From a virus (Duplodnaviria; Caudoviricetes): 64,000 bases of DNA. The number at the start of each line of letters is the position of its first letter. The first letter of the stretch is position 1. Of the stretch, positions 27,194 through 63,952 are shown piece by piece. The stretch is from IMG/VR virus record IMGVR_UViG_3300020598_000119; one strand, given 5' to 3'. The translations under genes were made by a program, and so were the position numbers. A model generated the notes under the pieces. It worked only from the letters and a program-made list of their open reading frames with translations. It had not been told where the DNA came from and ran no database searches.

Positions 27194-28021
27194 TTACCCC
27201 GTTACTGCTAGTGCAAACTTTCGTTCCGCGATCACTGGCTCGGCACCATCGACGAGGACATCTGCAAGGTTTTCGATCAACGACAAATTCGGAAGCTGAA
27301 CCTGTTCAACACTGGACCGCTCGATTGGACCAGTCGGACGATGTTTCTCAGGGATGCGAGCCAGCTCTTCGGCTGTCAGTTCTCTCATCACCTTCACGCG
27401 CCTTACGAAAGCGCCGCGCCGGAAATCTTCAGGGAAACCATCAAATTCCAACCCGCGAGCGGACATCATCTCGCGCTGTTCACGGGATGAACGCCCACTA
27501 AGTTCGTTGGGCGAACAGACCGAACGGGCTGCCATGCTGACAGCATTACGACGAGCATCCAGCTCACGCCAAAGGATCGCCTTGGCAGCCAAATCAAGTG
27601 TCGGAAAAGCGATAGCGCGACCGTCAAATGAGGGCAAACGATCACCAATCAGGTCAGGGAACAGTTCAAGGCCCTTCATGAGGAAGTGAGCCGTCACATG
27701 CGCAGCAAAGCGACTGGCCAACTTCTCGTACCGACCACTGCAAGGCAGTTCCTGATCTGGACTATAAAGCAGGAAGCTCATTTCATCTGATTGTGTGTAG
27801 CCGATCCGGCAGTTGAATTCCTCAACCGTAGACTTCGTTGCGTAGATCATCGCCGCTGAAATACGCGCGTCAAATGGCTTCACCGCATTCCGCGTGAACT
27901 TCGAAAAAGAAGCTCCGTCGACACGCACAACCATCGGCTCGCCAATGTTGGCTGCGCGAGCAGAATTCAATTTCTCATATGCCTTGATCTCATCACCAAG
28001 GACGTCGTCTACCTTGCTCAT
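27194..28021 (-). CDS. Thg1-like 3'-5' RNA polymerase (tRNA-His guanylyltransferase family)
   Basis: VRVDG..F.KFT, GYTQSDE, FDGR, WRE.DA.RN. Confidence 0.92.
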   Translation of the reverse strand: MSKVDDVLGDEIKAYEKLNSARAANIGEPMVVRVDGASFSKFTRNAVKPFDARISAAMIYATKSTVEEFNCRIGYTQSDEMSFLLYSPDQELPCSGRYEKLASRFAAHVTAHFLMKGLELFPDLIGDRLPSFDGRAIAFPTLDLAAKAILWRELDARRNAVSMAARSVCSPNELSGRSSREQREMMSARGLEFDGFPEDFRRGAFVRRVKVMRELTAEELARIPEKHRPTGPIERSSVEQVQLPNLSLIENLADVLVDGAEPVIAERKFALAVTG

Positions 28022-28175
28022 CACAATCTCCAAACACGGGCCAGGAAGACCCGTCATAAGCTTTTATTAAATCCCTCGAAAAAATAAAATTGTCAACTTA
28101 ATTGAGCTTGGTTTCTTGCGTTAAAATTCATAATTATTATCAGGCAAAAAATACGAAAAAAGCGAATGAAAGAAA

Positions 28176-30542
28176 ATGAGAAAGCTGATTATAACTCGTG
28201 GCCAGCCTGGTTCTGGCAAATCCCACGCCCTGAAGGCAATCGGAATGGAACAATGGACCCTGTCTGCCGACAATATTCGGTCGACAATCGCCGCCCCATT
28301 TCTGACGAGTGATGGTCAGATGATCGTCAATCAAGAGGTCTCAAGCCGCGCTTTCATGATGCTCAATCAATTCGCAGCCGAACGCATGTCGCGAGGCGAA
28401 ACGCTAGCGATTGACTCGACTCTCATCGAGCGCTCGAACTTGAAGAATTTGGCAGAGATGGCGAAGCCTCATCGCTATGAAATCGCCGTGCTCGACATGT
28501 CGACCATCCCGCTTGAGTTGACGCTCAAGCAAAACAGCGAGCGGCAGGAGATCAATCGAGTTTCTGAATTCAAAATTCGCGAGATGCATGCAAAACTATT
28601 GGAAGCTGGTATTCGAGATGATGTCGATGACGTCACCATCATTTATGGCAAGGAAGACGGTAGCCACATTGCTGAGCTGGATGCGTGGCTGCGTGAGCCT
28701 GTTCATGACTTCAGCGACCGCTACAAAGGCGTAATTCACATTGGCGATCTTCAAGGCTGCTTCACCGTTCTCGCGGGAGAGGGCGGCCCGCTGGCGAATG
28801 GATTTGACGACGACTACAAGTATGTCTTTGTAGGCGACCTGCTTGATCGTGGCATTGAAAACGGCCAGGTGATGCGCTGGTTCGTCGACAATGCTCTCCA
28901 CAGGGAAAACGTCACCCTTCTCTGGGGTAATCACGAAGACCATCTCGACCGCTGGGCGCGTGGTGAAGATGCCACAAGCGGTGAATTCGCCCTCAGAACG
29001 CTTCCGCAGCTTATCAAAGCAGGGATTACTCCTGCAGACGCTGAAGCCGTCTGTCAGAAGGCTAAGGAATTTCTCCAGTACAATTTTAAGGGTGCTGAGG
29101 TTCTCGTTACCCACGCTGGCTTAAGCACATTCCCAGATAAGCCTCATCTAATTTCGCTGTATCAATACTCCCATGGCACGGGCTATTGGGAAGATCCGAT
29201 TGATGAGCAGTTCGAGCGCAACAGCAAGAGAGGCTTCCAAGTTCACGGACACCGCAATCACGGCAACGTCGATATTGCGGCGACCGAACACTCGTTCAAT
29301 CTCGAAGACTCAGTCGAACACGGCGGCAATCTGCGAATTTGCACTCTCGATGGCAATGGCTGGAGCACCAGTGCATTCCGCAACTATGTCTATCGCCCGC
29401 TCAAGGAGCGCCTGGCTCTCGAAACCCAGATCACCGAAGTCAGAAAGGCCCAACGTAAAATGCTGCCTCATTGGATTATCAAGCCTGACGGCAAGTCGAC
29501 GGAAATGGATGCAAGCCTCCTGAAGTCTATGCACGAGCATGAAGGCGTTCGTGAAAAGTCGAGCGAACTTTTCCCGCACATATATTCGCTTAATTTCACT
29601 AAAAAAGTTTTTTACGACCGTTCATGGGATGATGTTGTCGTGAAGGCTCGTGGCCTGTTTATTGAACGAGAGACAAACAAAATCGTTTCTCGTGGCTATG
29701 AAAAATTTTGGAATGTGGGAGAACGTGAAGAAACTGAACTCACTAATCTCGCAAAGAACATGCAATTCCCGATCAGGCTTTACGTGAAATACAATGGCTT
29801 CCTTGGAAATATGGGGTACGACGAAAAAACCGACAGTCTCTTCATCGCCTCAAAATCTATGCCAGAGGGAAAATTTGCAGATTTCTTTAGAGATATTGTC
29901 GCACAACAGCTAACCAGCGTTCAGCAGGAAAAAATACGTCGATATCTTCGCGACACTGAATCGTCGATGACTTGGGAGGTTATTGATCCAGTAAATGACC
30001 CACACATGATCGAATATAACGAACCGAAAATAGTTCTGCTCGACATTATTCGACGTTCTGCGAATTTTGAGAAAGCAAGCTTTGATGTGGTTGAAGCCGT
30101 TGGCCGGAAATTCGGTATCGAAACGAAGAAACTGGCGATGACGTTCCAGAATGCCGCTGCCTTTGCTGGCTGGTACAGGAAGGCGACCACCGACATGAAC
30201 TACCGCGTCGGCGGGGAACATGTGGAAGGCTTGGTGATCGAAGACGCCGCTGGGTATATGACGAAGGTCAAACTGCCATTCTACGCGTTCTGGAAGCAGA
30301 TGCGTGGCGTGAAGGATCGTATCGTTGCATCCCGCGAAAAAGGGACGGAATTCACGTGGTCGCATACGCGGAAACCAGACGGTGGGCAGCCTGATGATAC
30401 TGAGATCGGGCTTGCTCATAGCTTCCGTGATTGGTGTCTGACGCAGGACAGCGACACATTGAAGGCCGATATCATTACTCTTCGCAAGGCTTACGAAGCA
30501 CATCTGGAATTCGGCCAGGACCTATCTGGCCCTTCGCTCTAA
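28176..30542 (+). CDS. Trifunctional RNA repair enzyme: polynucleotide kinase, metallophosphoesterase and Rnl1-type RNA ligase
   Basis: GQPGSGKS P-loop; GDLQG/GDLLDRG/GNHE/HAG/HGH; ligase KYNG (motif I), EGLVI (IV), KVK (V). Confidence 0.88.
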   Translation: MRKLIITRGQPGSGKSHALKAIGMEQWTLSADNIRSTIAAPFLTSDGQMIVNQEVSSRAFMMLNQFAAERMSRGETLAIDSTLIERSNLKNLAEMAKPHRYEIAVLDMSTIPLELTLKQNSERQEINRVSEFKIREMHAKLLEAGIRDDVDDVTIIYGKEDGSHIAELDAWLREPVHDFSDRYKGVIHIGDLQGCFTVLAGEGGPLANGFDDDYKYVFVGDLLDRGIENGQVMRWFVDNALHRENVTLLWGNHEDHLDRWARGEDATSGEFALRTLPQLIKAGITPADAEAVCQKAKEFLQYNFKGAEVLVTHAGLSTFPDKPHLISLYQYSHGTGYWEDPIDEQFERNSKRGFQVHGHRNHGNVDIAATEHSFNLEDSVEHGGNLRICTLDGNGWSTSAFRNYVYRPLKERLALETQITEVRKAQRKMLPHWIIKPDGKSTEMDASLLKSMHEHEGVREKSSELFPHIYSLNFTKKVFYDRSWDDVVVKARGLFIERETNKIVSRGYEKFWNVGEREETELTNLAKNMQFPIRLYVKYNGFLGNMGYDEKTDSLFIASKSMPEGKFADFFRDIVAQQLTSVQQEKIRRYLRDTESSMTWEVIDPVNDPHMIEYNEPKIVLLDIIRRSANFEKASFDVVEAVGRKFGIETKKLAMTFQNAAAFAGWYRKATTDMNYRVGGEHVEGLVIEDAAGYMTKVKLPFYAFWKQMRGVKDRIVASREKGTEFTWSHTRKPDGGQPDDTEIGLAHSFRDWCLTQDSDTLKADIITLRKAYEAHLEFGQDLSGPSL

Positions 30543-30576
30543 TTAAAGGCGGCGGTGTCACACGGATAGGAAGCAG

Positions 30577-31047
30577 ATGGATTTTAGTAGTTGGAATATG
30601 CGACGCAGGCTGATCGACAAAGATTTTCGTGCGGATTTGGAGGCCACCATTGAATGTGGGCCATTCGATGGTGGCTGCGTTATCGTTGCGCAGGCTCTAA
30701 AGGCAGTCATTGGCGGCGAAATTGTCGGTCTGGTAGACAAGGACGATGCAGTTGGTCATGCTGTCATTCTATTGGATGGAAAGCTTTGGGACTACGATGG
30801 CCCGATGCCGCCAGTGGCATTTATCGCGCGCTTCAATCGCCTTGAAGCTCCATGGAAATGCGTCGGATACCGGACGTTTCATGAAAATGATCTTGAATTA
30901 GCCTATCGCGATGACGAACTAGTCCGACGCTTGGTTAAATTATTTCGTCGAATGATGCCAGATTTGGCAAGGCAAAAAGTACAGTCATCCACTCTCGATG
31001 AAGAGTCACAACACACCGTTTACACGCCCAGGCTTGGGCCATCGTAA
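30577..31047 (+). CDS. Hypothetical protein, possible Cys-His-Asp fold
   Basis: DGGCVIVAQAL...GHAVI...WDYDG, resembles 21842..22303. Confidence 0.55.
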   Translation: MDFSSWNMRRRLIDKDFRADLEATIECGPFDGGCVIVAQALKAVIGGEIVGLVDKDDAVGHAVILLDGKLWDYDGPMPPVAFIARFNRLEAPWKCVGYRTFHENDLELAYRDDELVRRLVKLFRRMMPDLARQKVQSSTLDEESQHTVYTPRLGPS

Positions 31048-31200
31048 TGTTCACCCGTTTAATAATACGAATGAACTCGAATCATTTCGCTAGGTCGCCA
31101 AGACCACATCTATTGTTGATGTTGAAAACACCCATCTTTTGGATGCCGGTGGCGAACTGTTGTATGTTCGCAACGAATATTCAAACAAAGGCTTCATATC

Positions 31201-33171: not shown

Positions 33172-33292
33172 ATTGATGCTTGCGTGCCAGCAAACCAATA
33201 TGAAGGCATGACCAAAGGAGTGTTGTGTCTTCATTATTGAGCCGAGCAACAGAAAACCCGTATCGCTACACAACATTCCTCTGTCTCTACTG

Positions 33293-33802
33293 ATGGAGCC
33301 AGAAAACGCGTCTAGCCATGAGGAGGAGATGCTGAAGCTTGCTCTGTGTGGAAAGACCTGGAACGGCAAAGCCCTTCACAATCCGCTCGAACTACTCAGA
33401 AAGCACGCCAATCGGACCTTTAAAATGCGGCACAGGTTCAATGTTTCCTCAGAAAGTGGATACGTCTGGATCAGCCCAAAAGAGCCGGATGAAGAAGGGA
33501 TTATCGCCATCTATGAAAAGGGATCTAGAGCATTTGTCGGTGGCATCAGCAAGAATTGGATCGCTGTTGACGAAGCGCACCACGGAGCTGGCCTCGGAGC
33601 CGAATTATTCATTCGAGCGTTCGACGCGATGATCAAACATCCAGATACCATGAACGTAGGGCACAAGCTGACAAAAGCGGGTCGTGCATGCCTTATGAAG
33701 GCTCACAAGATCGCGATACAACGCGCTATCGACAGCGGCCTCGAAGTACCAGGCGAAGTCCTCGTAGATTACCCAGAATTCACCGTTAGCCCATCAATTT
33801 GA
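33293..33802 (+). CDS. Putative GNAT-fold protein
   Basis: IAVDEAHHGAGLGAEL acetyl-CoA-binding-like motif A, T.AG.A. Confidence 0.55.
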   Translation: MEPENASSHEEEMLKLALCGKTWNGKALHNPLELLRKHANRTFKMRHRFNVSSESGYVWISPKEPDEEGIIAIYEKGSRAFVGGISKNWIAVDEAHHGAGLGAELFIRAFDAMIKHPDTMNVGHKLTKAGRACLMKAHKIAIQRAIDSGLEVPGEVLVDYPEFTVSPSI

Positions 33803-35491: not shown

Positions 35492-35582
35492 TATTATCCA
35501 GGTTCAAGAATTATGCAACAATAAAAATTGACAAGTTCAATAAAAATATAGGCTTATCAGGGGTTCACGGGCGTTCAGAAAA

Positions 35583-37035: not shown

Positions 37036-37335
37036 CTACATCTTCATCGTTGGCGCTTCCTCAATATCTTCAACTTCTGGCTCCCTCCCCATCCATACGG
37101 TAGTGGCCAAAATGCGATCTTCATTGGAAGGATCAAGCGCTTCATTCGAAGCCCAATCCAAAAACTCAGAGTAGCCGCTACCGTGGGGTGGAGGAGGTGC
37201 CGAACGGCCAAACCACTTCGAACTCCGCTTTGCCTCTTGCTTAGGAGCGGATGTAGCCAACGAACGAGACGAAGACGTCATCTCATCGGTATCCTCCGGC
37301 TTAGTTCCAGGTCGTCTAAGTTTAAGCGCCATCAC
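37036..37335 (-). CDS. Small hypothetical protein
   Basis: Coupled to the CCA gene; ends EDIEEAPTMKM. Confidence 0.6.
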   Translation of the reverse strand: MMALKLRRPGTKPEDTDEMTSSSRSLATSAPKQEAKRSSKWFGRSAPPPPHGSGYSEFLDWASNEALDPSNEDRILATTVWMGREPEVEDIEEAPTMKM

Positions 37336-38498
37336 AACCTCCTAGCAGCGGGACCGCCATTCATAATCTCAGTGATCAGTTCCTCTTTTGAGAGCGTAAA
37401 GCCGGAGTCGATCCACTTGACCTTGGCCTCGTTCAGAGCCGCGCCCATGCCAGGACCCTTGTCCACGACACCTACGAGATCACGGCCCTTAAGGGGGAAG
37501 ACCGGAATATCGCCAGCCAACGCCTTTGCGGCCGCGTGAGCGCCAAGCGCAGAAAGAATTGGACAGGCGACAGCAGGATCAAGTCCATTCACTGCCTGAG
37601 TCAGCCAGTAGTGAGGGTCGCACTCAGCTGCAGCGAGGACCTGAGCTGCAGCAACAGCGTCCTTCAGCTCGGCATTCGACAATTTCCAGCGAGTTCCAAG
37701 CTCTTCGGCATAACTCTCATGCCCTGAGAGGATGCCCAACATCACCGATGGCCGCGCGCCGAACTCTCTGGCATCGGAAGCAATCCCGATATGTTCCTCG
37801 TCAATCGGCAGACCAATGACCTGGGCAACGCCCAAGGACGCCATCGGCCGCAGCTGCTTCGTGCCATTCGAATGCTGCAAGACCTTTGATATTTCGCTCC
37901 AGACACGCTCGACCGAGATACCGGAAAGCCCATGAGCGGTATCTTTAATCGCCTGCAGGTCATGCTCGGTCTCTTCGCCACCAAAACGAGCACGAAAACG
38001 AAAGAAGCGCAGGATGCGCAGGTAGTCCTCTTCAATACGCTCGCGCGCATTGCCGACAAATCTTACGCGCCCTTCATTGAGATCCTTCAAGCCGCCAAAA
38101 TAGTCATGCACCTGCCCGTCGAGAGAGGCCGACATCGCGTTGAAGGTGAAATCGCGTCGAGCCGCATCTTCCGCGAAGTCAGTGACATACTCCACAGTTG
38201 CATGACGTCCATCGGTCTCAACGTCTTTCCGGAGCGTCGTGACTTCATAGCCAACGTCCTCATACATGAGGGTGACGGTACCATGTTGCAGACCAGTCGG
38301 AATAACCCGATAGCCCTTACGCTCAGCCAGTTCCATTACGACCTCGGGCAGAGCGTCTGTAGCAAGGTCCATATCTTTCGGTTGCATACCGACAACCATG
38401 TCACGCACGGCACCTCCGACCAGGCGGGACTGAAACCCGCCTGCTGAAAGGAGATGACCAATTGCATGGATGCCACGATCCGTTATGGAGATTTTCAT
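37332..38498 (-). CDS. cca: CCA-adding tRNA nucleotidyltransferase
   Basis: VGGAVRD..DMDLAT, HGT, EVTTLR, RRDFTFNA, EDYLRILR; start after SD GAGG. Confidence 0.93.
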   Translation of the reverse strand: MKISITDRGIHAIGHLLSAGGFQSRLVGGAVRDMVVGMQPKDMDLATDALPEVVMELAERKGYRVIPTGLQHGTVTLMYEDVGYEVTTLRKDVETDGRHATVEYVTDFAEDAARRDFTFNAMSASLDGQVHDYFGGLKDLNEGRVRFVGNARERIEEDYLRILRFFRFRARFGGEETEHDLQAIKDTAHGLSGISVERVWSEISKVLQHSNGTKQLRPMASLGVAQVIGLPIDEEHIGIASDAREFGARPSVMLGILSGHESYAEELGTRWKLSNAELKDAVAAAQVLAAAECDPHYWLTQAVNGLDPAVACPILSALGAHAAAKALAGDIPVFPLKGRDLVGVVDKGPGMGAALNEAKVKWIDSGFTLSKEELITEIMNGGPAARRL

Positions 38499-38569
38499 GT
38501 TCACCTCAAATTGCTTATGTCGAATGTAACCGAACATGACGAAATTACCTACGGCCAAAGATGCGATCC

Positions 38570-38598
38570 TTGACTGAGGCGGCGACATTTACTAAACA
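38570..38598 (+). promoter_or_regulatory. Putative sigma70 promoter P1 of the Glu/Asp leader
   Basis: cTTGACT-N17-TAAACA. Confidence 0.55.
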
Positions 38599-39055: not shown

Positions 39056-39127
39056 GCCGCCATCTTCTAGTGGTTAGGATGCTGCCCTCTCAAGGCGGTG
39101 ACGCGAGTTCGAACCTCGCTGGCGGTA
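39056..39127 (+). tRNA. tRNA-Glu(CTC), no encoded CCA
   Basis: GCCGCCA/TGGCGGT acceptor; CTGCC-CTCTCAA-GGCGG; one nt separates it from the next tRNA. Confidence 0.9.
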
Positions 39128-39128
39128 C

Positions 39129-39205
39129 GGTGATGTAGCTCAGTGGGTTAGAGCACCTGACTGTCGATCAGGGTGTCGTGGGTTCGAGTCCCATCATTGC
39201 CGCCA
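39129..39205 (+). tRNA. tRNA-Asp(GTC)
   Basis: CCTGA-CTGTCGA-TCAGG; G73; CCA. Confidence 0.92.
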
Positions 39206-39208
39206 CGT

Positions 39209-39283
39209 GTCGCTGTCGTCTAATGGTTAGGACGTCTGATTTTCAATCAGAAAATGGGAGTTCGATTCTCCTCAGCGGTACCA
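39209..39283 (+). tRNA. tRNA-Glu(TTC)
   Basis: TCTGA-TTTTCAA-TCAGA; CCA. Confidence 0.92.
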
Positions 39284-39379: not shown

Positions 39380-41506
39380 CTATTCTTCTTTACCGCCTCC
39401 TTGTCCACCACCTGACTGAGGTGGTGGCGGTGTCTTGACTTGAGGTTGCTTGACAGGAAGTTTCTGAGGGGCAATTGGGGCTTTAGCCGTTGCCATACCT
39501 GCAGCAACCATTGCGCCTGCGGCCGCATGAGTTTCCTGTCCATCATTGTAACCATGGGTACCAGAGAAGCCCATCCAATGCCCAACACGATCTGCAATAG
39601 TTGGAATGAGACCAAAAAGACGAAGCGTCAAATGCCACTGCATCCATGCCCACATAACAAGCTTAACCGCGTATTGAATGAAGAAAAGGATACCCATGCT
39701 ACCCGTTTGGGCATAAAAGGCCTCATCCCAGATAATGTTAAGGGACAACAAGAGAACTGGAAGCAACAACAATCCGCCAATAAATGCTAACATTCCAATA
39801 GCAGGTCGCAAGAACAGATTGAATATTAATGTAACACCAGGGGCCTGGTTACGATCAAAAAATTCATTGCCATCCATGCGAATGAATGCAAAGGCCCATA
39901 GAACGCCAGCGATTGCTGCTTCCAAGAACATTATCAGCCAAGACACACCCATCACAAACACCATAATCATTGGGATCATAGGCAGAACATAAGCATGTAA
40001 CATACCGACAACCAAAAAGATCAATATCAGATACGTGACCCACTGACCGAAATAACTCAGGACCCCGCTAAGAAATCCACTCGCGGCACCAACACCTGGT
40101 AACAGTTTAAAAAAGCCAGTGCCTTCGGCAGCAGCATTGGCAGTTCCATTTAGCAGAAGCATAGCAGCAATAGCTGAAGCAGCAGCACCGAGCAAGTAAT
40201 GGCCATAGGTAATCATAGACCCAATAGGATCACCTGACATATTCTTAATCTGCATATCATCGGCAGATGGCAAAATTGAGGACAATAAGGTAGTTACAGT
40301 ATCACCACCATCGGAAGCAATCATACTACCATCTTCAGACAACGTCATATTATCAAGTGCGCGTGCCGCCAACACTGCATTGAAAGCAGCGGCGTATGCC
40401 TCATAATATGAGCGTCCAGGATTCGGAGTCGTCTTAACTGGAGTAGCATTCGCCAAAGAAGATGTTGTTCCCGAAATTTTCGATATGTCTCGCTCGTAAG
40501 AGCCAGCCATCATAAAGCCGTACTCTTTAATCCGCTTTGCCAGATTCTCTTTATTCTCAGATGAGGCCCCCTTGTAAACCTCAGATGCCGCTGCTCCCAC
40601 TGCTTTGTTCCATTTTCTTGCCTCATCTTCGATAGTGGTTGCAATGTGCTTAGAAATAATACCGGCCTTTTCAAGCTCTGCAGCGACTTCACCTGCAGGC
40701 CGATCAGAATACGACTTTGTAGCAAAATACTCGCCGAGAACCGACATTTTGTCTTCTGCCGATTTTCTCACATCAATTTTACTGCGAACCGTATTAATGA
40801 CCGCTTGAGTAGCATCGTCCCGCTTCTTGTGAAAGTCTGAAAATCTACGGGTTTTATCTTCCTCGGAACCTGCGAGACCATCATCCGCAATTGTGGTTGT
40901 GAATCCAATCGAACCACACCAACCATAACTCCACGTAGTGGTTATAGAACCAGACTGTATTCTCGTAGTTGGCTTCTCGGGCAGAGCGATCTCCCCGCTC
41001 ACACCAAAATAAGAATTATTGTAGATTGCATTACGAACAGTGGTACACACTTCGCGCTCTATAACATCGATGACCAATTGACGCCCAGACATTGACGTAA
41101 GGGATATCTCACCTCCGTTCGCGGCCAAGTGATCGATGTAGGCAATGATTGGCGCATTGCCCATGTTTACGGCTGCTCGACCTATAACCTCCTTTAGAAC
41201 ATAATGGACCGAAGAAAAACCACCGGCGATTGGGATCAAGAGACCGAATCCAAGGACAACACGCAGCGGTGCCCAAATTTGATGATATCTTTCTCCCAAC
41301 ACTTTGCCACTATAGGCCGAGGACACGATACCTATGACAATGTGCCAACCCAGAAAAAGACCGCCGAGAAGACCAAGCATCGATGTAAAAACGGAGAAAG
41401 CCTGTCCAAATCCGCTTTCTGGACCGGTATTAAACAAGACTTCGATCCACTTAAAAGCGATATCGTTGCCTTTTCCATCCCCTGGCGTTGCAAATAGGTC
41501 CAGCAT
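39380..41506 (-). CDS. dotA: DotA/TraY family type IVB secretion membrane protein
   Basis: SA..GKVLG...IWAPLR..LG.GLLIP N-terminus; YVLPMIP, EA.IA..LWA, LFLRP C-terminal TM bundle. Confidence 0.88.
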   Translation of the reverse strand: MLDLFATPGDGKGNDIAFKWIEVLFNTGPESGFGQAFSVFTSMLGLLGGLFLGWHIVIGIVSSAYSGKVLGERYHQIWAPLRVVLGFGLLIPIAGGFSSVHYVLKEVIGRAAVNMGNAPIIAYIDHLAANGGEISLTSMSGRQLVIDVIEREVCTTVRNAIYNNSYFGVSGEIALPEKPTTRIQSGSITTTWSYGWCGSIGFTTTIADDGLAGSEEDKTRRFSDFHKKRDDATQAVINTVRSKIDVRKSAEDKMSVLGEYFATKSYSDRPAGEVAAELEKAGIISKHIATTIEDEARKWNKAVGAAASEVYKGASSENKENLAKRIKEYGFMMAGSYERDISKISGTTSSLANATPVKTTPNPGRSYYEAYAAAFNAVLAARALDNMTLSEDGSMIASDGGDTVTTLLSSILPSADDMQIKNMSGDPIGSMITYGHYLLGAAASAIAAMLLLNGTANAAAEGTGFFKLLPGVGAASGFLSGVLSYFGQWVTYLILIFLVVGMLHAYVLPMIPMIMVFVMGVSWLIMFLEAAIAGVLWAFAFIRMDGNEFFDRNQAPGVTLIFNLFLRPAIGMLAFIGGLLLLPVLLLSLNIIWDEAFYAQTGSMGILFFIQYAVKLVMWAWMQWHLTLRLFGLIPTIADRVGHWMGFSGTHGYNDGQETHAAAGAMVAAGMATAKAPIAPQKLPVKQPQVKTPPPPQSGGGQGGGKEE

Positions 41507-41671
41507 GAGCCGCTCCCAAAATAAATAATTGATAAAGATGATAAATGTTATCCCCAGTCCATGCAAACATCGATTTTTTTCGTTTTTAGAAGAAAAATAT
41601 GTTGACAGGCATAAATAACGCCCCTATATAAGGGTCACAAAGACCGCAGACGATTTTATAAGGAGGATCAC

Positions 41672-46230: not shown

Positions 46231-46479
46231 ATGTATGCACAGGATCGCCTCGAAAGGGAGAATGCAATGAGAATCTCGGATGCTATTAAAAAGAATTCAG
46301 AATCGATCCGTCAAATGGGTCGAAAGGCTATCGAAGAAAGCAAGAAGAAGGGCGTGCCAGCCTACTATGTAGAAAAGGGCGAGGGAAAAACTATTACTCA
46401 AGAAAATCCAGACGGGACAAGAGTTCACATCGAGGGAGAGGAAGAGGGGGTGCAAAATGGAGCACGAATGGGAAGATGA
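46231..46479 (+). CDS. Small protein, putative antitoxin partner of the zeta-like kinase
   Basis: KAIEE.KKKGVP.YY...I..E.PDG pattern; overlaps the downstream gene. Confidence 0.55.
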   Translation: MYAQDRLERENAMRISDAIKKNSESIRQMGRKAIEESKKKGVPAYYVEKGEGKTITQENPDGTRVHIEGEEEGVQNGARMGR

Positions 46480-47092
46480 GTTATACTGCGTAATCCTTGC
46501 AGGTCCTAACGGATCAGGTAAATCGACGATTGCCAAGGAAATTGAAACGCCTGGAGAATTCATAAACGCTGACCATATTGAGGCGGCCCTTAAAAGGGAA
46601 GGTAACCCCAATGCTGGGTCTATTGCGGCGGGCAAAATAGCTATAAAAGCAATAAACAATAAGATCGAAACCAGAAAATCGTTCACGTATGAAACAACCC
46701 TAAGCAGCCATCAGTCTATGAATGTAATAAGGAGTGCAAAAGATCACGGATACACCGTAGATCTTCTTTTTGTCTGCGTAAATTCCACTCTCCTCAACGT
46801 CAAGCGAGTTCAGAGCAGAGTTGAACAGGGTGGGCATGATATCCCAATCGAAGCCATTACACGAAGATATGACAAGTCCTTTTCAAATCTGTCTCCAGCA
46901 CTACAGCTTGTTGATACTGCTCTTATTTATGACAACTCGGGCGAAAGCCCTCAATTGATTGCCCACGTTGAAGACAGAATGGTCATAGCTACCAACTTTG
47001 AGGATGGGAACGAGCTACACGAAAGAATTTTCGGCATATTAAGAGATAATTTTGAAATCACTTCAGATGCGAAAAAACCGGGACCAAGATGA
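46457..47092 (+). CDS. Zeta-toxin-like P-loop kinase
   Basis: AGPNGSGKST, INAD, ETTLS, RV..RV..GGH.IP, YDNS. Confidence 0.85.
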   Translation: MEHEWEDELYCVILAGPNGSGKSTIAKEIETPGEFINADHIEAALKREGNPNAGSIAAGKIAIKAINNKIETRKSFTYETTLSSHQSMNVIRSAKDHGYTVDLLFVCVNSTLLNVKRVQSRVEQGGHDIPIEAITRRYDKSFSNLSPALQLVDTALIYDNSGESPQLIAHVEDRMVIATNFEDGNELHERIFGILRDNFEITSDAKKPGPR

Positions 47093-47732: not shown

Positions 47733-47808
47733 TTGGGTGTAGCTCAGTTGGTAGAGCGCCTGGCTGTTAACCAGGTTGTCGCAGGTTCGAACCCTGCCAT
47801 CCAAGCCA
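47733..47808 (+). tRNA. tRNA-Asn(GTT)
   Basis: CCTGG-CTGTTAA-CCAGG; G73; CCA. Confidence 0.93.
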
Positions 47809-47871
47809 ATTTTCACTTCAGGTAAACCTGAAAGCTCGCGGATATTGATTGTCGCGGCGAGCGAGGAATTC

Positions 47872-47948
47872 GCGTCCTTAGCTCAGCTGGTAGTAGCGTC
47901 TCCTTTACACGGAGAATGTCGGCGGTTCGATCCCGTCAGGACGCACCA
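47872..47948 (+). tRNA. tRNA-Val(TAC)
   Basis: TCTCC-TTTACAC-GGAGA; CCA. Confidence 0.93.
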
Positions 47949-47972
47949 AATTGCAATTGAGAGGAGATGGAA

Positions 47973-48128
47973 ATGCAAAGAAATGAGGCTTCGGCAGGAC
48001 GTAAATCGGGTGAAAAGCTCGTTCGTGCATGTCCAGTTAGTGTTCTAAAACAGCCAGTTAGGAAGTTTGAAGATACATTTAGCGCCGAGAATGTCGTTCT
48101 TGAGAAATTCTTCTCGCGCAACATATGA
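47973..48128 (+). CDS. Small 51-aa ORF inside the tRNA array
   Basis: SD GAGGAG 6 nt before ATG; MQRNEASAG...EKFFSRNI. Confidence 0.4.
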   Translation: MQRNEASAGRKSGEKLVRACPVSVLKQPVRKFEDTFSAENVVLEKFFSRNI

Positions 48129-48154
48129 TCTATGACATTTGAATGTCGATAATT

Positions 48155-48229
48155 GCGGGTATAACTCAGTGGTAGAGTGTCACCTTGCCAAGGTGAAAGT
48201 CGAGAGTTCGAATCTCTTTGCCCGCTCCA
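48155..48229 (+). tRNA. tRNA-Gly(GCC)
   Basis: TCACC-TTGCCAA-GGTGA; U73; CCA. Confidence 0.94.
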
Positions 48230-48290
48230 CGAATTGCCTTCCGAACTGGTCCTTGACGGGCGGCGATTTGAGAAACAACATCAGGACTAT

Positions 48291-48366
48291 GGGGAATTAG
48301 CTCAGCTGGGAGAGCGCGTGCTTTGCAAGCATGAGGTCATCGGTTCGAACCCGATATTCTCCACCA
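48291..48366 (+). tRNA. tRNA-Ala(TGC)
   Basis: G3:U70; CGTGC-TTTGCAA-GCATG; CCA. Confidence 0.94.
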
Positions 48367-48487
48367 GAATTTGTAGCTCATTAATGGGCGAGGGAGCGAC
48401 ATGCCTTAAGGGCGGCTCAACGTAATTATGCGAGGAATCTATCAGGTACGCCGGAGAAAGTTCCACGGTTGGGGGCAGATTACAAAT

Positions 48488-48561
48488 GCGGGTGTAGCTC
48501 AATGGTAGAGCAGTAGCCTTCCAAGCTGATGACGAGGGTTCGATTCCCTTCACCCGCTCCA
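48488..48561 (+). tRNA. tRNA-Gly(TCC)
   Basis: TAGC-CTTCCAA-GCTG; U73; CCA. Confidence 0.93.
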
Positions 48562-48602
48562 TCTAATTCACTGAATTTGACGTTTAAATACGTCATACGA
48601 AA

Positions 48603-48678
48603 CGCGGAATAGAGCAGTGGTAGCTCGTCGGGGTCATGACCCGAAGGTCGCAGGGTTCGATTCCCTCTTCCGCAACCA
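48603..48678 (+). tRNA. Initiator-type tRNA-fMet(CAT), variant 1
   Basis: C1:A72 mismatch; TCGGG-GTCATGA-CCCGA; bulged T stem. Confidence 0.82.
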
Positions 48679-48833
48679 ATGTCGGCCTCAGCCGAGTGTC
48701 GACATCTTTCTCTCCCGTGAGGGGTGCGAGATGCCCTCTAATTATCAAAGGGCTACCGTGCTCAGAATGGCCTAGACTTTCGGGGCGTGGAGAGTAACGT
48801 CTACAGAATTTGCCGGAAAGGCAGTCAAGTTAT

Positions 48834-48911
48834 CGCGGAGTGGAGCAGCCAGGTCAGCTCGCTAGGCTCATAACCTTGAGGTCATCGGTTCGAATCCGAT
48901 CTCCGCAACCA
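48834..48911 (+). tRNA. Initiator-type tRNA-fMet(CAT), variant 2
   Basis: C1:A72; GAGC/GCTC D stem; CTAGG-CTCATAA-CCTTG. Confidence 0.85.
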
Positions 48912-49110
48912 GCTTGGGAAATCGCGAGTAAAGTAGCCCTGCGGCGGTTCGAAACGTTTGCGCAGTGTGTGAAATGATAAGCGGTTTCCCATCCTTAAAG
49001 AAGATGGCGCATTGATTGCGACGTCGACAAACAGCGGCATTCGTTGCCGTGTAGAGGCCCGTAATGATCACCACGGATGTACTGGGATCAATCAGGCCTC
49101 GAACCCTTTT

Positions 49111-49187
49111 GGCGGGATAGAGCAGCCAGGTAGCTCGTCAGGTTCATAACCTGAAGGCCGTAGGTTCAAATCCTACTCCCGCAACCA
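49111..49187 (+). tRNA. Initiator-type tRNA-fMet(CAT), variant 3
   Basis: G1:A72 mismatch; TCAGG-TTCATAA-CCTGA; GTTCAAATC. Confidence 0.87.
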
Positions 49188-49216
49188 GTAAGATGCGAGA
49201 AAACATCAAGAAATTC

Positions 49217-49312
49217 ACTGCCGGATGCTCCAACTGGGTTGGGGAGAATCCATAATATGACCTGGGCGCGGCCTGTCGGTCACAAGGTAGGTTCGATTCC
49301 TGCACGGCGGTA
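49217..49312 (+). ncRNA. tRNA-like RNA without a canonical anticodon arm
   Basis: ACTGCCG/CGGCGGT acceptor-like stem, long D-like hairpin, long extra hairpin, T arm GTAGG-TTCGATT-CCTGC; no CCA. Confidence 0.5.
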
Positions 49313-49329
49313 AAGTCATTCACTCATAT

Positions 49330-49405
<76 letters not shown>

Positions 49406-49621
49406 TATTCCGCGATGAAGCGCCACTATCGGCGATCTCGCATCATTTCTGTCGAAGGCCCAATCGATGGGCAGCCACCAGAGGATTCCGTGAGGAACTC
49501 GGCCGATGAAATCTAGCCCCTCACCAGGGCGGCGAGATCATCAAATGGTCAGTGGGGTGGAAGGTAGCGAAAAAGGAGCTGTGGTGGCTCTTGGTGCAAA
49601 TCCCGCTCGGCAGGCCAATTC

Positions 49622-49696
49622 GGGTTCGTAGTTTAGTGGTAGAACATCGCCTTGACATGGCGAAGGTCGCAAGTTCGATCCTTGCCGAACCCACCA
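49622..49696 (+). tRNA. tRNA-Val(GAC)
   Basis: TCGCC-TTGACAT-GGCGA; CCA. Confidence 0.93.
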
Positions 49697-49712
49697 CGAA
49701 GTTTAACAGTTT

Positions 49713-49787
49713 GCGCGCATAGCTCAGTGGTAGAGCACTCCGCTGATAACGGAGAGGTCGGAAGTTCAACCCTTCCTGCACGCACCA
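49713..49787 (+). tRNA. tRNA-Ile(GAT) copy 1
   Basis: CTCCG-CTGATAA-CGGAG; CCA. Confidence 0.92.
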
Positions 49788-49795
49788 GAATTGAT

Positions 49796-49870
49796 GTCAG
49801 TGTAGCTCAGCGGGAGAGCGCGCGCTTGATAAGCGTGATGTCGCAAGTTCGATCCTTGCCATTGACACCA
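49796..49870 (+). tRNA. tRNA-Ile(GAT) copy 2 (divergent body)
   Basis: CGCGC-TTGATAA-GCGTG; CCA. Confidence 0.9.
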
Positions 49871-49884
49871 GTTATCATAGTTTT

Positions 49885-49960
49885 GGCAGTATAGCTCAGT
49901 TGGTAGAGCGGCGGACTCATAAGCCGTAGGTCGATAGTTCAATCCTATCTACTGCCACCA
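49885..49960 (+). tRNA. Elongator tRNA-Met(CAT) (Ile2 not excluded)
   Basis: Paired G1:C72; GCGGA-CTCATAA-GCCGT; CCA. Confidence 0.85.
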
Positions 49961-49987
49961 AAACATCGTTTCCATTAATGTTGAGAT

Positions 49988-50062
49988 GCTGCAGTAACTC
50001 AGTGGTAGAGTACCTTCTTGGTAAGGAGGAAGCCGAGAGTTCGATCCTCTCCTGCAGCACCA
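49988..50062 (+). tRNA. tRNA-Thr(GGT)
   Basis: CCTTC-TTGGTAA-GGAGG; CCA. Confidence 0.93.
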
Positions 50063-50911: not shown

Positions 50912-51778
50912 CTACGCGAGCTTTCGGCAGTTTGATAATTCAGGCTGCCTAACATCAAAAAGTAGCTCACCTGTAGGTCCGTGAATTTCCAGTAACCTGT
51001 CATTACCGCTTTCCGCTTGCGCGTACTTCAATCGTTTTCCATTCAGCTTCAACAACCAGCCATCATTTCTGTATTTATCGCCATCTAGGTCATTCATCGG
51101 GTCGGAGACGGCAAAGGTTTCCAACATCTTGCGGCCATCGTCAGTGAAACTGTGACCAGCCTTGTTGAGATAATCGGCAACAAACACTCGAAGGAAGATG
51201 GGATCAAATGCACGTCTGCCGAAACCAGGGCTTTCAACATTCGCAGACATCAAACACAAGGCCGCCTCAGCCGTCATCCCGCTCTTATAGACTCGCTTTT
51301 GGGTCAATGCGTCGAACACATCCGCAATAGCGGTCAAACGAGCAGAAACTGGGATATTCTCGCCCTTTAGGCCATGATAGCCAAAGCCGTCATAGCGCTC
51401 ATGATGGTATTTTGCGACGTCTCTCCAAATCTGGGGCGCATCGTCGCCGAGCAAAACGCTTCCGTCCGATGCATGCCGCTGCATGATCGTTCGTTCACTG
51501 TCGTCCAGCTTTCCTGATTTGTTCAAAACCGCATCTGGGGTCGCCAGTTTGCCGATGTCGTGCCAACGAGCTGCATCGTTCAAAGTGGCCACGAAATCGA
51601 CATCAAAACCCACCGCATCAGCCAACGCCGTTGCAACGCGCGCAACACCCTCTGAATGCAGCTTCACGTCCTTGCGGAAAGACGATTCACGCGCCTCAAG
51701 CCAGGTCAAACGATCTGCAAAGGAAATCCCACGAGGGATTTCTCGCATAAGCGCGGTAATATTCGACGTTGTCGACAT
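50912..51778 (-). CDS. HD-GYP family phosphodiesterase
   Basis: HSEGVA, HDIGK, HHERYDGFGY, IADVFDALT.KR.YK. Confidence 0.9.
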   Translation of the reverse strand: MSTTSNITALMREIPRGISFADRLTWLEARESSFRKDVKLHSEGVARVATALADAVGFDVDFVATLNDAARWHDIGKLATPDAVLNKSGKLDDSERTIMQRHASDGSVLLGDDAPQIWRDVAKYHHERYDGFGYHGLKGENIPVSARLTAIADVFDALTQKRVYKSGMTAEAALCLMSANVESPGFGRRAFDPIFLRVFVADYLNKAGHSFTDDGRKMLETFAVSDPMNDLDGDKYRNDGWLLKLNGKRLKYAQAESGNDRLLEIHGPTGELLFDVRQPELSNCRKLA

Positions 51779-55091: not shown

Positions 55092-55100
55092 TATGGCTCC

Positions 55101-55559: not shown

Positions 55560-55611
55560 TGAAGGTTCCTTTTCACCCTTTAATTGTTCACACAAACTAA
55601 AGTGGAGTCAA

Positions 55612-56328: not shown

Positions 56329-56444
56329 TTCCCTTTCGGTAGTCAATAAATCCTGTAATATCGAATGTGGAATAAAGTATCTGTCTGGAGAATGCGTTGT
56401 CAACGAATTTAAGCAATAAAAGCCATTCCAAATTCAGAAGTATT

Positions 56445-56795: not shown

Positions 56796-56796
56796 A

Positions 56797-57390: not shown

Positions 57391-57404
57391 GGCGATACGA
57401 CTTC

Positions 57405-59519: not shown

Positions 59520-59640
59520 TCAAAAACTCCAAGTGCCAATTAGTTGACAAATATAAGGGGAATATGTCAAGGATAAAGAGTTCTCGACTGGCGCATCAGG
59601 AATTTGTATCTTTATTCGCCAGCCGCAATAAGAGGAAATA

Positions 59641-62600: not shown

Positions 62601-63312
62601 CAAAGCCTCGTTGGCGCGCTGGATGCAGGAAAACAACGCTGCATCCCTGAAGAACAAGCGTCTTGCTGGCCTCGTTGAATTCATCGAGCGTAAACAGACC
62701 CGCAATGGAGATCCATTTATCACGGCCAGAGTTGCCGAAAAGAATGATCACTTCTACGTGCGATTTTTCATGAGTGATGAAGACAGCGAGCATCTGGACA
62801 AGGTTCGACAGACCCTTGAGAACGCCAAAATAAGCCGTCGACCTGTCATTATCGTGGCGAATCTTTCCATTCGATCTGACGGCGGTGATCGTGAAGATAT
62901 GGCAATCTGGGGGAACGCTGTTCTCGATGCGGACGAAATTCTAGTCAGCGAGCGAGGCAAAATTCGCGTAAAAATCGACGCGGATCAGATCATTCCTTCG
63001 ATGGATGAGCAGAAGCAAATTCGCGACATTAAGGAAAAGCAGACTCAGGGTACTTTCTCGACGGAAGATGCAGAGAACGCAATCGCTGGAGTCAGAGCAG
63101 CGGGTGCGAGGCGCAAGACTGAAACATTGACCAAAATGCTGGGTCGAGTTCGGGCCGATGAAAAGGAATCTGCGACGCAGATCATTCTTACTACAATCGT
63201 CAATGGAACTTCGACAGACGTCCTGCTAGAAGGCAACTACATGGTCGATCTGTCTGTCGAGAACGCCATTAAAGCCACGGACGGCGTCATATCTGTCGGA
63301 GAAGCCATCTAA
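59641..63312 (+). CDS. dnaE: DNA polymerase III alpha subunit
   Basis: HLHVHS PHP domain, GRGSGAGS, PDFDVDF, KFDFLGL, FNKSH, QTDLF clamp motif. Confidence 0.97.
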   Translation: MQEIFAHLHVHSDFTLAIGASKVKALVAAAKAAKIPAIALVDEGNMYGAMEFSQAAADKGIQPIIGVKLWFDNGMNTKGSIILLAQNEKGYENICHILAQSHRPREGNEGGMAIIPVEVISGNTEGVIALTGGVDGCIRTLLLKGRDDDAEQLLNWLRYEFCDRIYIEITRFGDETAKDIEIEEKLINFAYNAVEFECSDGVVRNSVPLVGTSEVWYAEKKRHDAFEILNAVTNKSVVNIEGGVITARSNRRYHVRSVDEMKALFADLPEAFENAAAIAQRCAFKTSGRKPILPPFQTQGGRSEGEEMRVQAHEGLKQRLASVGMADGYTEQQYIDRLEYELGIIEGMEFPGYFLIVSDFIKWAKAHGIPVGPGRGSGAGSLVAYSLKITDLDPLRWGLLFERFLNPERVSMPDFDVDFCQDRRGEVIQYVREKYGDDYVSMIATFGEIKSRTAIKDVGRVLNSDEHGTYSYPEVDALTKIIPKKGQEPKPLAEAMEDENDPGFRMLVNSSEKNKLLIQKSMQVEGLYRSQGTHAAGVIITGRPMDTLVPVGWDSQSSMPVCQFNMKHAEKSGLVKFDFLGLKTLSVIRECLENIENTTGEKIDLEQIDLGCQQTYAMLSEGYTNGVFQFESDGMKKWFRALKPSRFEDLIALVSLYRPGPMDMIPHFVDCKNGKATPHYPEPADQTKLFLEETFGIMVYQEQVMLVAQVVAGYSLGGADMLRRAMGKKIPEEMAAQRKTFIDGAVAKGTPAETANALFDTIDKFAGYGFNKSHAAAYALIAYQTAWLKKHYPAQFMAALLTYEDKPEKMAKVKEDMDAFGIKMLMPSIDLSSARFKPEKFGDGFGVRFGLAAINGISKDLSILENARKDGPFKSLTDFYSRAGTQFNKGQLERLVEAGAFDGKQFARNRYCAASILAYLSKGGKKTNTAQTDLFGGTLELAFPKELNEKVEWGNRIDREFNAVGFYFGEHPLDTYEARLRKVKVKRKASLARWMQENNAASLKNKRLAGLVEFIERKQTRNGDPFITARVAEKNDHFYVRFFMSDEDSEHLDKVRQTLENAKISRRPVIIVANLSIRSDGGDREDMAIWGNAVLDADEILVSERGKIRVKIDADQIIPSMDEQKQIRDIKEKQTQGTFSTEDAENAIAGVRAAGARRKTETLTKMLGRVRADEKESATQIILTTIVNGTSTDVLLEGNYMVDLSVENAIKATDGVISVGEAI

Positions 63313-63332
63313 ATGCAATTCCGCAAACAAAT

Positions 63333-63360
63333 AAAAAGGCGGCACAGGAGCCGCCTTTTT
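63333..63360. terminator. Bidirectional terminator
   Basis: AAAAAGGCGGC-ACAGGA-GCCGCCTTTTT. Confidence 0.8.
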
Positions 63361-63361
63361 A

Positions 63362-63952
63362 TTACTGTTTGAACGTCGCAGAGGGAGGGGACGGCAATTG
63401 CAGATATTTCTTGTCAAATTTCTCACAGAGGATTTCACCGTTTTCGGCATGCAAGAATTCATGTCCCTCGTTAGCCAGTGCAACGGCGTCGACTTCGATG
63501 ACCATGGGTCCAGGACCAGGTCGGGCCTCTGCGATTTCTAAAGCACGCTCAAATGTATCCACCAACCGAATGAAGTGCTTCTTTGACAAAGTAAGGCCAT
63601 GTTCCTCGATCTGATCCCGTGCTTCCTCCGTCGTTCCGAAATAGAGCATCCCCGTAGGCACATATCGCTCATATCCCAAATCGACTTCAAATGAGTGGCC
63701 AGAGAGCGCCCGAATTTCCAATCCATTCTCGCTCAGAGCGAAACGTGTCTTATGAGGGTCATTGAGAGCCTCTTCAATATGAACCCGATCCAGCTTTCCG
63801 TCGAACGCCTTCAATCCATTCAGGTAGTTAATAACAGAGTCGACTGACACAAAACCGTTACGATCAATGGAGAGCACACCATCAGGATTGTGTCGGAGCA
63901 AGCGCGAGAGACTTTTAGTGATCAGAGGCAACGGAAATCCATTGTGTTCCAT
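63362..63952 (-). CDS. kptA: Tpt1/KptA RNA 2'-phosphotransferase family protein
   Basis: S.LLRH, K.RF, IRA.SGHS; NAD-domain HGT is FGT; start may lie further upstream (window edge). Confidence 0.8.
   Translation of the reverse strand: MEHNGFPLPLITKSLSRLLRHNPDGVLSIDRNGFVSVDSVINYLNGLKAFDGKLDRVHIEEALNDPHKTRFALSENGLEIRALSGHSFEVDLGYERYVPTGMLYFGTTEEARDQIEEHGLTLSKKHFIRLVDTFERALEIAEARPGPGPMVIEVDAVALANEGHEFLHAENGEILCEKFDKKYLQLPSPPSATFKQ

Follow-up and report, generated by a model that had tools for sequence, protein, structure and literature searches.

The subject of this work is a set of four RNA-repair genes in a 64,000-nucleotide stretch of DNA (hereafter the window) catalogued in IMG/VR as the virus record IMGVR_UViG_3300020598_000119 (Duplodnaviria; Caudoviricetes). 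The set comprises the genes for a putative 3'-5' nucleotidyltransferase of the Thg1-like protein (TLP) type (27194..28021, minus strand), for a predicted trifunctional RNA heal-and-seal enzyme of 788 aa in which kinase, phosphoesterase and ligase domains are fused (28176..30542, plus strand), for a class II CCA-adding tRNA nucleotidyltransferase (37332..38588, minus strand) and for a Tpt1/KptA-family protein with a variant active site (63362..63952, minus strand). A preliminary description of the sequence had proposed these four identities and coordinates, and they were borne out by Pfam, NCBIfam and PHROG scans of the window proteins, which were also scanned with PADLOC; tRNA genes were called with ARAGORN, which located 19 in the window. 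The observation itself is thus confirmed, and the interpretation then attached to it is supported in part.

The window belongs to a giant transferable replicon of Mesorhizobium that is low in GC and of the Dot/Icm type, and comparison with its relatives suggests that RNA repair is a selected trait of this replicon family, carried as interchangeable modules and not as one operon. Two relatives anchor the comparison. The closest genome is that of Mesorhizobium sp. SP-1A, whose contig 2 (1,189,113 bp) holds the same region, with the compared window proteins 87-100% identical to those it encodes. The second is plasmid pRlX5 of Rhizobium leguminosarum TP16 (NZ_CP140867.1; 1.32 Mb), which is collinear with the window and strongly diverged from it, 37 of 50 window open reading frames (ORFs) finding a match there, nearly all in one inverted order.

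The kinase-phosphoesterase-ligase fusion

The product of the fusion gene matches AAA_33, Metallophos and RNA_lig_T4_1, with a P-loop polynucleotide kinase predicted at residues 1-175, a binuclear metallophosphoesterase at 176-413 and a ligase with its C-domain at 423-779. The ligase, whose adenylyltransferase domain has an Rnl1-like N sub-domain, scores 123.5 bits against PF09511, and phrog_8238 ('RNA ligase') aligns with the protein end to end (E 6e-167); the members of this family from Twort-like, SPbeta-like and Brochothrix A9 phages share the full-length architecture at 30-36% identity. The kinase keeps GQPGSGKS and D32, the phosphoesterase keeps GDLLDRG, GNHE, H313, H357 and H359, and ligase motifs I, III, IV and V (K538-x-N-G, with Lys538 as the nucleophile, E601, E684-G and K697-x-K699) are invariant. 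Phosphoesterase motif I, on the other hand, reads GDLQG, with Gln where His is expected. The GDxQG form is found in 119 of 119 close homologs and at all proteobacterial loci, and the clade of the window fusion always has Gln, whereas the Firmicutes phage and plasmid homologs examined, phrog_8238 phage members among them, have His (GDxHG, or GDVHS in phage members).

An AlphaFold (AF2) model built from 40 homologs (pLDDT 91.4) was superposed on known structures with VIA-align. The ligase (model residues 423-779) superposes on chain residues 24-398 of fungal Trl1-LIG, C-domain included (Z 30.6, rmsd 3.0 A over 327 residues), while T4 Rnl1 is a poorer match, in which only the nucleotidyltransferase part (to about residue 280) is aligned (Z 23, 2.4 A, 243 residues). 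For the kinase and the phosphatase, the closest solved structures are those of bacterial Pnkp, represented by the Clostridium thermocellum enzyme (CthPnkp): its phosphatase domain 4J6O gives Z 22.3 (2.8 A, 226 residues) and its kinase Z 20.2 (2.0 A, 163 residues). The model thus depicts an enzyme with Clostridium Pnkp-type healing domains and a ligase of Trl1/Rnl6 type that includes the C-domain. The preliminary description had instead likened the fusion to the T4 pair Pnkp plus Rnl1, which acts against PrrC, and this comparison does not stand. What is shared is the predicted chemistry (5'-OH phosphorylation, 3' healing and ATP-dependent sealing of the anticodon loop), but the fusion is one polypeptide and not two proteins, and its phosphatase is a binuclear metallophosphoesterase and not an acylphosphatase of the DxDxT (HAD) kind.

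With the bacterial Pnkp/Hen1 systems of C. thermocellum and Anabaena the fusion shares its kinase-metallophosphoesterase-ligase order. It differs from them in motif I (GDLQG as opposed to GDxHG), in the lack of Hen1 and in its ligase, which is not one of the Rnl4 type, dependent on the N-domain of Hen1. The Pnkp profile TIGR04075 accordingly stays below its cut-off of 750, with 71.6 bits, and covers residues 4-317 only. With a ligase of Rnl6 rather than Rnl4 type, no Hen1 would be needed or present, and the absence of a Hen1 partner that had been remarked upon earlier extends to SP-1A, where nothing scored above the TIGR04074 cut-off (best 25 bits against 340).

The likeness to the ligase domain of fungal Trl1 (Rnl6) encompasses the fold of adenylyltransferase and C-domain, motifs I, III, IV and V and, possibly, the positions of a His and of a (K/R)xxR element. 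In Trl1, the 2'-PO4 is bound by His227, Arg334 and Arg337 (PMC6379707, PMC11404444). His610 of the fusion aligns with His227, the 2'-PO4 (sulfate) ligand, and K707-x-x-R710 aligns with R334-x-x-R337 in sequence and in spacing from motif V, the first Arg being replaced by Lys; His610 and Lys707-x-x-Arg710 are both invariant in the 40 homologs. The two enzymes differ in domain order (KIN-phosphoesterase-LIG in the fusion, LIG-KIN-CPD in Trl1) and in the healing of the 3' end, which Trl1 entrusts to a 2H cyclic phosphodiesterase and the fusion to a metallophosphoesterase, and their sequences are 18-20% identical. The Trl1 C-domain has been described as unique (PMC6379707), confined to fungi. No mention of a prokaryotic Rnl6 ligase was found in the literature searched, and Burroughs and Aravind (2016) may describe the fusion architecture.

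The significance of Gln in motif I can be gauged from CthPnkp, in which the corresponding His is required for monoesterase activity and dispensable for the Mn-dependent diesterase (PMC1920235, PMC2190708). Its H189D variant yields 2'-PO4 ends that yeast ligase can splice (PMC1920235, PMC2190708), and H189Q and H189N have less cyclic phosphodiesterase activity than H189A (PMC2190708). By analogy, the Gln of the window fusion may weaken its healing of 3' ends.

As had been proposed, the fusion and Thg1-like genes diverge head to head over an AT-rich spacer. This intergenic region, read directly from the sequence, occupies 28022..28175 (no strand assigned) and measures 118-154 bp, depending on the Thg1-like start; a scan of it for consensus promoters and terminators returned nothing convincing.

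The Tpt1-family protein and a possible yeast-type pathway

The Tpt1-family assignment derives from PF01885 (E 6e-25; 88.7 bits against a cut-off of 26) and from Runella Tpt1 (7KW8, E 8e-23). The catalytic Arg-His-Arg-Arg tetrad is nonetheless incomplete: the LRH and IRA positions are kept and the fourth Arg is Lys. Where Runella has SR-HHVHLS the window protein has SKKHFIRLV, so that the His of VHLS is Arg as well. This variant pattern is common to six members of the clade at 40-96% identity, whereas the pRlX5 and G434 copies are canonical. Conservation over such a range of identities indicates purifying selection, and the gene thus appears to be under selection, even if, judging by its residues, catalytic activity is not to be assumed. 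The protein is also diverged as a whole, with 92 bits as compared to about 155 bits for other Mesorhizobium copies. Of the earlier proposal that this protein removes 2'-phosphates, then, family membership holds and the removal itself is not assured, given the non-canonical tetrad.

Taken together with the fusion, Tpt1 brings to mind tRNA splicing in yeast. In such a pathway the Gln-variant phosphoesterase would leave 3'-OH/2'-PO4 ends, the Trl1-like ligase would seal them and Tpt1 would clear the 2'-PO4 with NAD+. The superposition on Trl1-LIG through the C-domain, which T4 Rnl1 matches in its nucleotidyltransferase part only, is in line with this scheme, and so are the invariant His610 and K707-x-x-R710, which align with the Trl1 2'-PO4 ligands, the universality of GDxQG among close homologs of the fusion when the equivalent His of CthPnkp is needed for monoesterase activity only, and the location on the replicon of the sole Tpt1 of the SP-1A genome. 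The distribution of the two genes, however, speaks against it. Only one of five other genomes with a Gln-type fusion has Tpt1, both Asticcacaulis genomes lacking it; pRlX5 carries Tpt1 without the fusion; and the 70 Tpt1-positive phage records include no phage of Staphylococcus, Brochothrix or Lactobacillus. Moreover, the phage members with His in motif I share the WKxxR site, H189Q lowered the cyclic phosphodiesterase of CthPnkp instead of raising it (PMC2190708), the fourth catalytic Arg of the window Tpt1 is Lys, and the fusion and Tpt1 genes are 33 kb apart. We therefore regard a yeast-type pathway as rather unlikely. In its strict form, an obligate coupling of fusion and Tpt1, it is weakened by pRlX5, by the genomes with Gln-type fusions and by the phage records.

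The Thg1-like protein

The ORF of the Thg1-like gene extends to 28057, but its start is probably at 28021, a position common to the homologs, which gives a protein of 275 aa. It is recognized by PF04446 (E 1e-26; 93.9 bits against a cut-off of 29.2) and by phrog_4717 (E 1e-53), and its best sequence match in the PDB is the TLP of Bacillus thuringiensis (BtTLP; 4KGK, E 1e-21), human Thg1 following at 3e-10. The carboxylate motifs RVDG and SDE are preserved; D35, D79 and E80 (275-aa numbering) align to BtTLP and are invariant in an alignment of 25 sequences. DARRNAVSM aligns with DASKNSISM of BtTLP and with the HINNLYN region of chain 5XOX, placing the protein, by its sequence, in the bacterial TLP branch, which is devoid of the eukaryotic HINNLYN tRNA-His motif. 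The carboxylates and the TLP motif are shared with the B. thuringiensis and Myxococcus xanthus TLPs, and templated 3'-5' repair of tRNA would be expected as for these enzymes (PMC3061083, PMC3701042). The window protein differs from them in its operon with a UvrD-type helicase gene and in a C-terminal extension of some 50 residues that is conserved among the alphaproteobacterial plasmid and phage homologs.

Two other roles of Thg1-family proteins were considered and discarded. In agreement with the preliminary description, ARAGORN finds no tRNA-His among the 19 tRNA genes of the window, and the tRNA-His genes of the relatives had to be consulted: that of the SP-1A replicon has T at -1, a G1.U72 pair and U73, and both pRlX5 copies have T at -1, G1.U72 and A73. 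The tRNA-His of Rhizobiales and Caulobacterales is known to lack G-1, which their HisRS does not use (PMC3561963). Since these genes are of the G-1-less type a role in tRNA-His maturation is unlikely, and without C73 there is nothing to template G-1; with G-1 and C73 missing in the two relatives, the protein was rejected as a tRNA-His maturase. A role in 5' editing was likewise rejected. Across 64 tRNA genes (45 from SP-1A and 19 from the window), acceptor positions 1-3 show no systematic mismatch, the one exception being the 1:72 mismatch of an initiator-type tRNA-Met. Bacterial TLPs repair 5'-truncated tRNAs in vitro (PMC3061083), and by analogy tRNA 5'-end repair is the better reading of the Thg1-like protein; the earlier preference for repair over G-1 addition is thereby upheld. 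The SP-1A tRNA-His(GTG) gene (contig 2, 955472-955546, minus strand) is itself unusual, its acceptor stem being mismatched at U5.U68 and U6.U67 in addition to U73, whereas the stems of both pRlX5 copies are clean.

The Thg1-like gene is the first of an operon in which a UvrD-type helicase gene (25223-27190) lies 3 bp away on the same strand, and MarR and MutL genes follow, also on the same strand. This arrangement could be taken to mean that the Thg1-like protein acts on DNA or replication primers, together with the co-transcribed helicase, and not on tRNA. The two genes are also neighbors in pRlX5 (117887-120688), which makes their link more conserved than that between Thg1-like and fusion genes. 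Nevertheless, no UvrD neighbor is present at 80 distant Thg1-like loci. We know of no member of the Thg1 family that acts on DNA. The characterized bacterial TLPs, in turn, work on tRNA 5' ends (PMC3061083). A role in DNA metabolism is thus highly improbable, the operon link with UvrD notwithstanding.

The CCA-adding enzyme and the tRNA genes

The CCA enzyme (PF01743, PF12627) has intact motifs A-E (GGAVRD/DMD, RRD, DYFGG, EDYLR and ERVWSE) and aligns over its full length with the human mitochondrial CCA enzyme TRNT1 (E 1e-68). The NCBIfam CCA models score highest on it, albeit under their equivalog cut-offs, and the PcnB models score lower; addition of the full CCA is not reliably separable, from sequence, from A-adding, CC-adding or poly(A) activity, and it should be read as the putative function of the protein. 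The gene is a second copy, 36% identical to the chromosomal copy of SP-1A. As had been reported, it diverges from a tRNA-Glu(CTC), tRNA-Asp(GTC), tRNA-Glu(TTC) cluster (39056..39283, plus strand; ARAGORN). The tRNA-Glu(CTC) of this cluster (39056-39128) ends in the discriminator A plus a single C and abuts the tRNA-Asp gene, whereas in its SP-1A counterpart the CCA is complete and a 9-nt spacer follows. Owing to this incomplete encoded end the window tRNA needs CCA completion after processing. It is, on the other hand, the exception: CCA is encoded in 18 of the 19 window tRNAs, and the CCA enzyme would hence mainly repair ends.

These observations bear on a housekeeping explanation for the whole set, in which the enzymes would mature and control the quality of the codon-fitted tRNAs of the replicon in any host, by completing CCA ends, correcting 5' ends and clearing away stray phosphates, and would not serve to counter toxins. 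As its GC content of 51% is below that of the host, the replicon might profit from such a service, and codon adaptation is how the tRNA arrays of the Bifidobacterium megaplasmid pMP7017 have been explained (PMC10832533). The incomplete tRNA-Glu(CTC) next to the CCA gene, the persistence of CCA and Glu/Asp tRNA genes as neighbors in pRlX5, the two U.U acceptor mismatches of the SP-1A tRNA-His and the lack of any nearby toxin or defense gene in the PADLOC scan of the window all fit this explanation. Yet nearly all window tRNAs encode their CCA and the host has a CCA enzyme of its own, the acceptor stems contain no systematic 5' mismatches to correct, and bacterial tRNAs, having no introns, mature without kinase-phosphoesterase-ligase fusions, RtcB or Pnkp/Hen1, all of which act on broken RNA. 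Housekeeping is consequently unlikely to account for the set, even if it is the strongest of the alternatives that we have weighed.

Conservation and replacement across relatives

The repair genes are accessory genes. Among 401 sampled genomes of the host order, SP-1A is the only one with a Thg1-like gene; the fusion occurs in one of 61 relatives, and Tpt1 exceeds the family cut-off in 8 of these 61. Within the genus, 7 of 37 genomes carry it. In SP-1A, the sole PF09511 ligase, the sole Tpt1 and the sole RtcB are all on contig 2. The presence of these genes in the window is not a matter of chance.

The comparison with pRlX5 offers a more telling view of how the set evolves. This plasmid retains the Thg1-like protein (43% identity), again beside UvrD, the CCA enzyme (49%), again beside the Glu/Asp tRNAs and DotA, and Tpt1 (32%), together with Ro60 and RlaP, and it has several RtcB-family matches at no fewer than four loci within 392842-646091. 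A PF09511 search shows that the fusion, by contrast, is absent. In its stead pRlX5 possesses a Hen1-Pnkp operon (578735-582655) that scores above the curated NCBIfam cut-offs (456 bits for Hen1, TIGR04074). Thg1-like, CCA, Tpt1 and RtcB are therefore backbone genes, and the ATP-dependent heal-and-seal slot is variable, being filled by the fusion here and by Pnkp/Hen1 in pRlX5. That one heal-and-seal system has been replaced by an analogous one on a collinear backbone indicates that RNA repair is selected, and we consider this our strongest argument. In all, the RNA ligases of pRlX5 far outnumber those of the Mesorhizobium-type replicon.

Within the replicon lineage of the window the pairing of Thg1-like and fusion genes seems stable. 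Homologs of both are found on at least eight metagenomic contigs, at 54-64% (Thg1-like) and 55-65% (fusion) identity, one of these contigs being just 6,763 bp long; co-location was deduced here from contigs of identical size in the two lists of homologs.

Replacement and conservation are also what sets the data apart from those expected of mere cargo, i.e. genes of phage origin or acquired piecemeal, with no shared function and in some cases (Tpt1) possibly decaying. The cargo view can point to PHROG counterparts for every one of the four families, to the frequency of fusion and Thg1-like genes in large phages, to the scattered positions of the genes, to a fusion slot that differs from relative to relative and to the strong divergence of Tpt1. 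Against this, none of the ORFs is disrupted, and Thg1-like, fusion and CCA proteins keep their core catalytic motifs; Thg1-like, CCA and Tpt1 genes are syntenic across replicons at 32-49% protein identity; the variant pattern of Tpt1 is itself conserved; and the fusion has been replaced in pRlX5 by an analogous system, not simply lost. We thus give very little credence to the cargo explanation.

The host replicon and its gene content

In gene content the window resembles a giant phage, yet it carries type IVB transfer genes. A DotA/TraY type IVB secretion/conjugation protein (39380..41566, minus strand; TIGR04346, E 1e-72, 245.7 bits against a cut-off of 100) is part of the transfer apparatus of the replicon, and a T2SSE-type ATPase is also encoded. 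Both belong to the genes interspersed with and flanking the repair genes, a group that also includes RecA, MutL, two UvrD-type helicases, RecD2, the alpha and epsilon subunits of Pol III, RusA, ThyA, DHFR, dUTPase, a sigma factor and a PBP. The replicon has a near-complete tRNA set of its own. In the window, a 14-tRNA gene array (47733..50062, plus strand; ARAGORN), all of whose tRNAs have a genomically encoded CCA, is the likely substrate of the repair enzymes.

A 400-kb segment of SP-1A contig 2 (760001-1160000) has a uniform GC content of about 51% and 45 tRNA genes. On the same contig Ro60/TROVE lies at 190 kb and Tpt1 at 1,080 kb, and since the repair genes are spread along most of it, contig 2 is probably the replicon itself. 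Plasmid pRlX5 has its 52 tRNA genes arranged in the same blocks and is the sole tblastn match to DotA in PLSDB; megablast of 20 kb returned no DNA-level relative among plasmids or phages. The first 400 kb of pRlX5 (1-400000) are 63% GC, about 12 points above the SP-1A segment. For collinear replicons, a gap of this size means that one of them has drifted far from, or towards, the composition of its own host.

Several other genes of the window deserve mention. Directly 5' of the 14-tRNA array, a P-loop kinase (Zeta_toxin/AAA_33; 46457-47092, plus strand) bears a weak likeness to the Pnkp kinase (TIGR04075, E 5e-5) and has no counterpart in the first 400 kb of pRlX5. Directly after the array, an HD/HD_5 phosphohydrolase (50912-51778, minus strand), 44% identical to a pRlX5 copy, could be another RNA-end or nucleotide phosphoesterase. 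A stand-alone metallophosphoesterase of the calcineurin type (7616-8374, plus strand), located near RecD2, is 56% identical to a pRlX5 gene. Finally, a 156-aa ORF 35 bp 3' of the fusion gene (30577..31047, plus strand) has a tblastn counterpart in SP-1A and no tblastn match in the first 400 kb of pRlX5; its Pfam, PHROG and PADLOC scans were empty, and a language-model search for look-alikes pointed to YunG-like phage proteins, which we treat as a lead only.

A probable RNA end-repair kit on a transferable megaplasmid

The reading that we favor, with some confidence, is that these genes form an RNA end-repair kit, a modular and selected trait that keeps tRNAs working when tRNA-cutting toxins or defenses are met. 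Like a jumbo phage, the replicon would have such a kit alongside its own tRNAs, with enzymes that each act independently, on different RNA lesions. The fusion would phosphorylate 5'-OH ends, open or remove 2',3'-cyclic phosphates and seal the break with its Trl1-type ligase, without Hen1, and RtcB, encoded just outside the window in the SP-1A relative, would seal the same breaks directly. The Thg1-like protein would restore acceptor stems truncated at the 5' end, adding nucleotides 3'-5' on a template; the CCA enzyme would rebuild tRNA 3' ends, and the Tpt1-family protein might handle 2'-phosphate (or 5'-phosphate) ends. The data establish what the genes are, that catalytic motifs are intact, that the genes are accessory and how they are retained or replaced among relatives; tRNA as the substrate, the enzymatic activities and the role against toxins are inferred from these. 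The presumable benefit is that tRNAs would stay functional under attack by tRNA-cutting toxins or defenses.

A number of results weigh against this reading. The four genes lie 9-33 kb apart, over 37 kb, among genes for DNA replication, DNA repair and secretion, and no common regulatory signal was found for them. None of 80 distant metagenomic Thg1-like loci has an adjoining fusion gene, a single weak and partial fusion match lying about 8 kb off, and none of seven fusion loci outside the replicon lineage has a Thg1-like neighbor; a general linkage of the two genes was hence discarded, the pairing being confined to the lineage of the window. In phages, the fusion, Thg1-like and Tpt1 families have largely different host ranges. 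No tRNase toxin or defense gene was identified among the unknown ORFs of the window, where PADLOC gave weak P-loop and HD matches only. To these must be added the incomplete tetrad of Tpt1 and the Gln of the fusion phosphoesterase. Likewise, what is said here of tRNA-His and RtcB in connection with the window is drawn from a relative with 87-100% identical proteins. The preliminary description had seen in repair plus replacement one anti-ribotoxin strategy of a conjugative megaplasmid. Selection for RNA repair is backed by the comparison with pRlX5, but the scattered genes and the lack of detectable shared regulation do not speak of a single program, and we infer such a unified strategy with corresponding caution.

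The concept of an anti-ribotoxin toolkit has already been published for jumbo phages, in which tRNAs, an ATP-dependent ligase with kinase and phosphoesterase, RtcB, KptA, a CCA enzyme, Thg1, RlaP and Ro60 make up an RNA-repair kit (PMC7824862, section 3.4.9) whose proposed purpose is to counter RNA-cutting effectors (PMC7824862). As in jumbo phages, these families are found here in the company of numerous tRNA genes on a single large mobile genome. The carrier, on the other hand, is no virion-forming phage: it is a replicon of plasmid type, about 1.2 Mb in size, that has Dot/Icm-like genes for transfer and an almost complete tRNA set. New in this work are thus the carrier, a megabase-sized transferable rhizobial plasmid, the modular heal-and-seal slot and the presence of a Trl1-like ligase in the fusion.

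The tRNAs and RNA-repair enzymes of phages are read as armor against host defenses that cut tRNA, and the rhizobial plasmids described here extend this logic to conjugation. Rhizobia with such megaplasmids are culturable and genetically tractable hosts in which the logic of RNA repair can be tested, and the interchange of fusion and Pnkp/Hen1 constitutes a natural experiment in which the function, and not the gene, has been selected. In the fusion, moreover, bacteria and phages seem to have an equivalent of the tRNA-splicing ligase of eukaryotes, which is of interest for the evolutionary source of the eukaryotic enzyme and for the question of why bacteria have Tpt1 at all. If a yeast-style pathway of fusion and Tpt1 turned out to be true, it would provide bacterial Tpt1 with the native substrate that it has long been missing.

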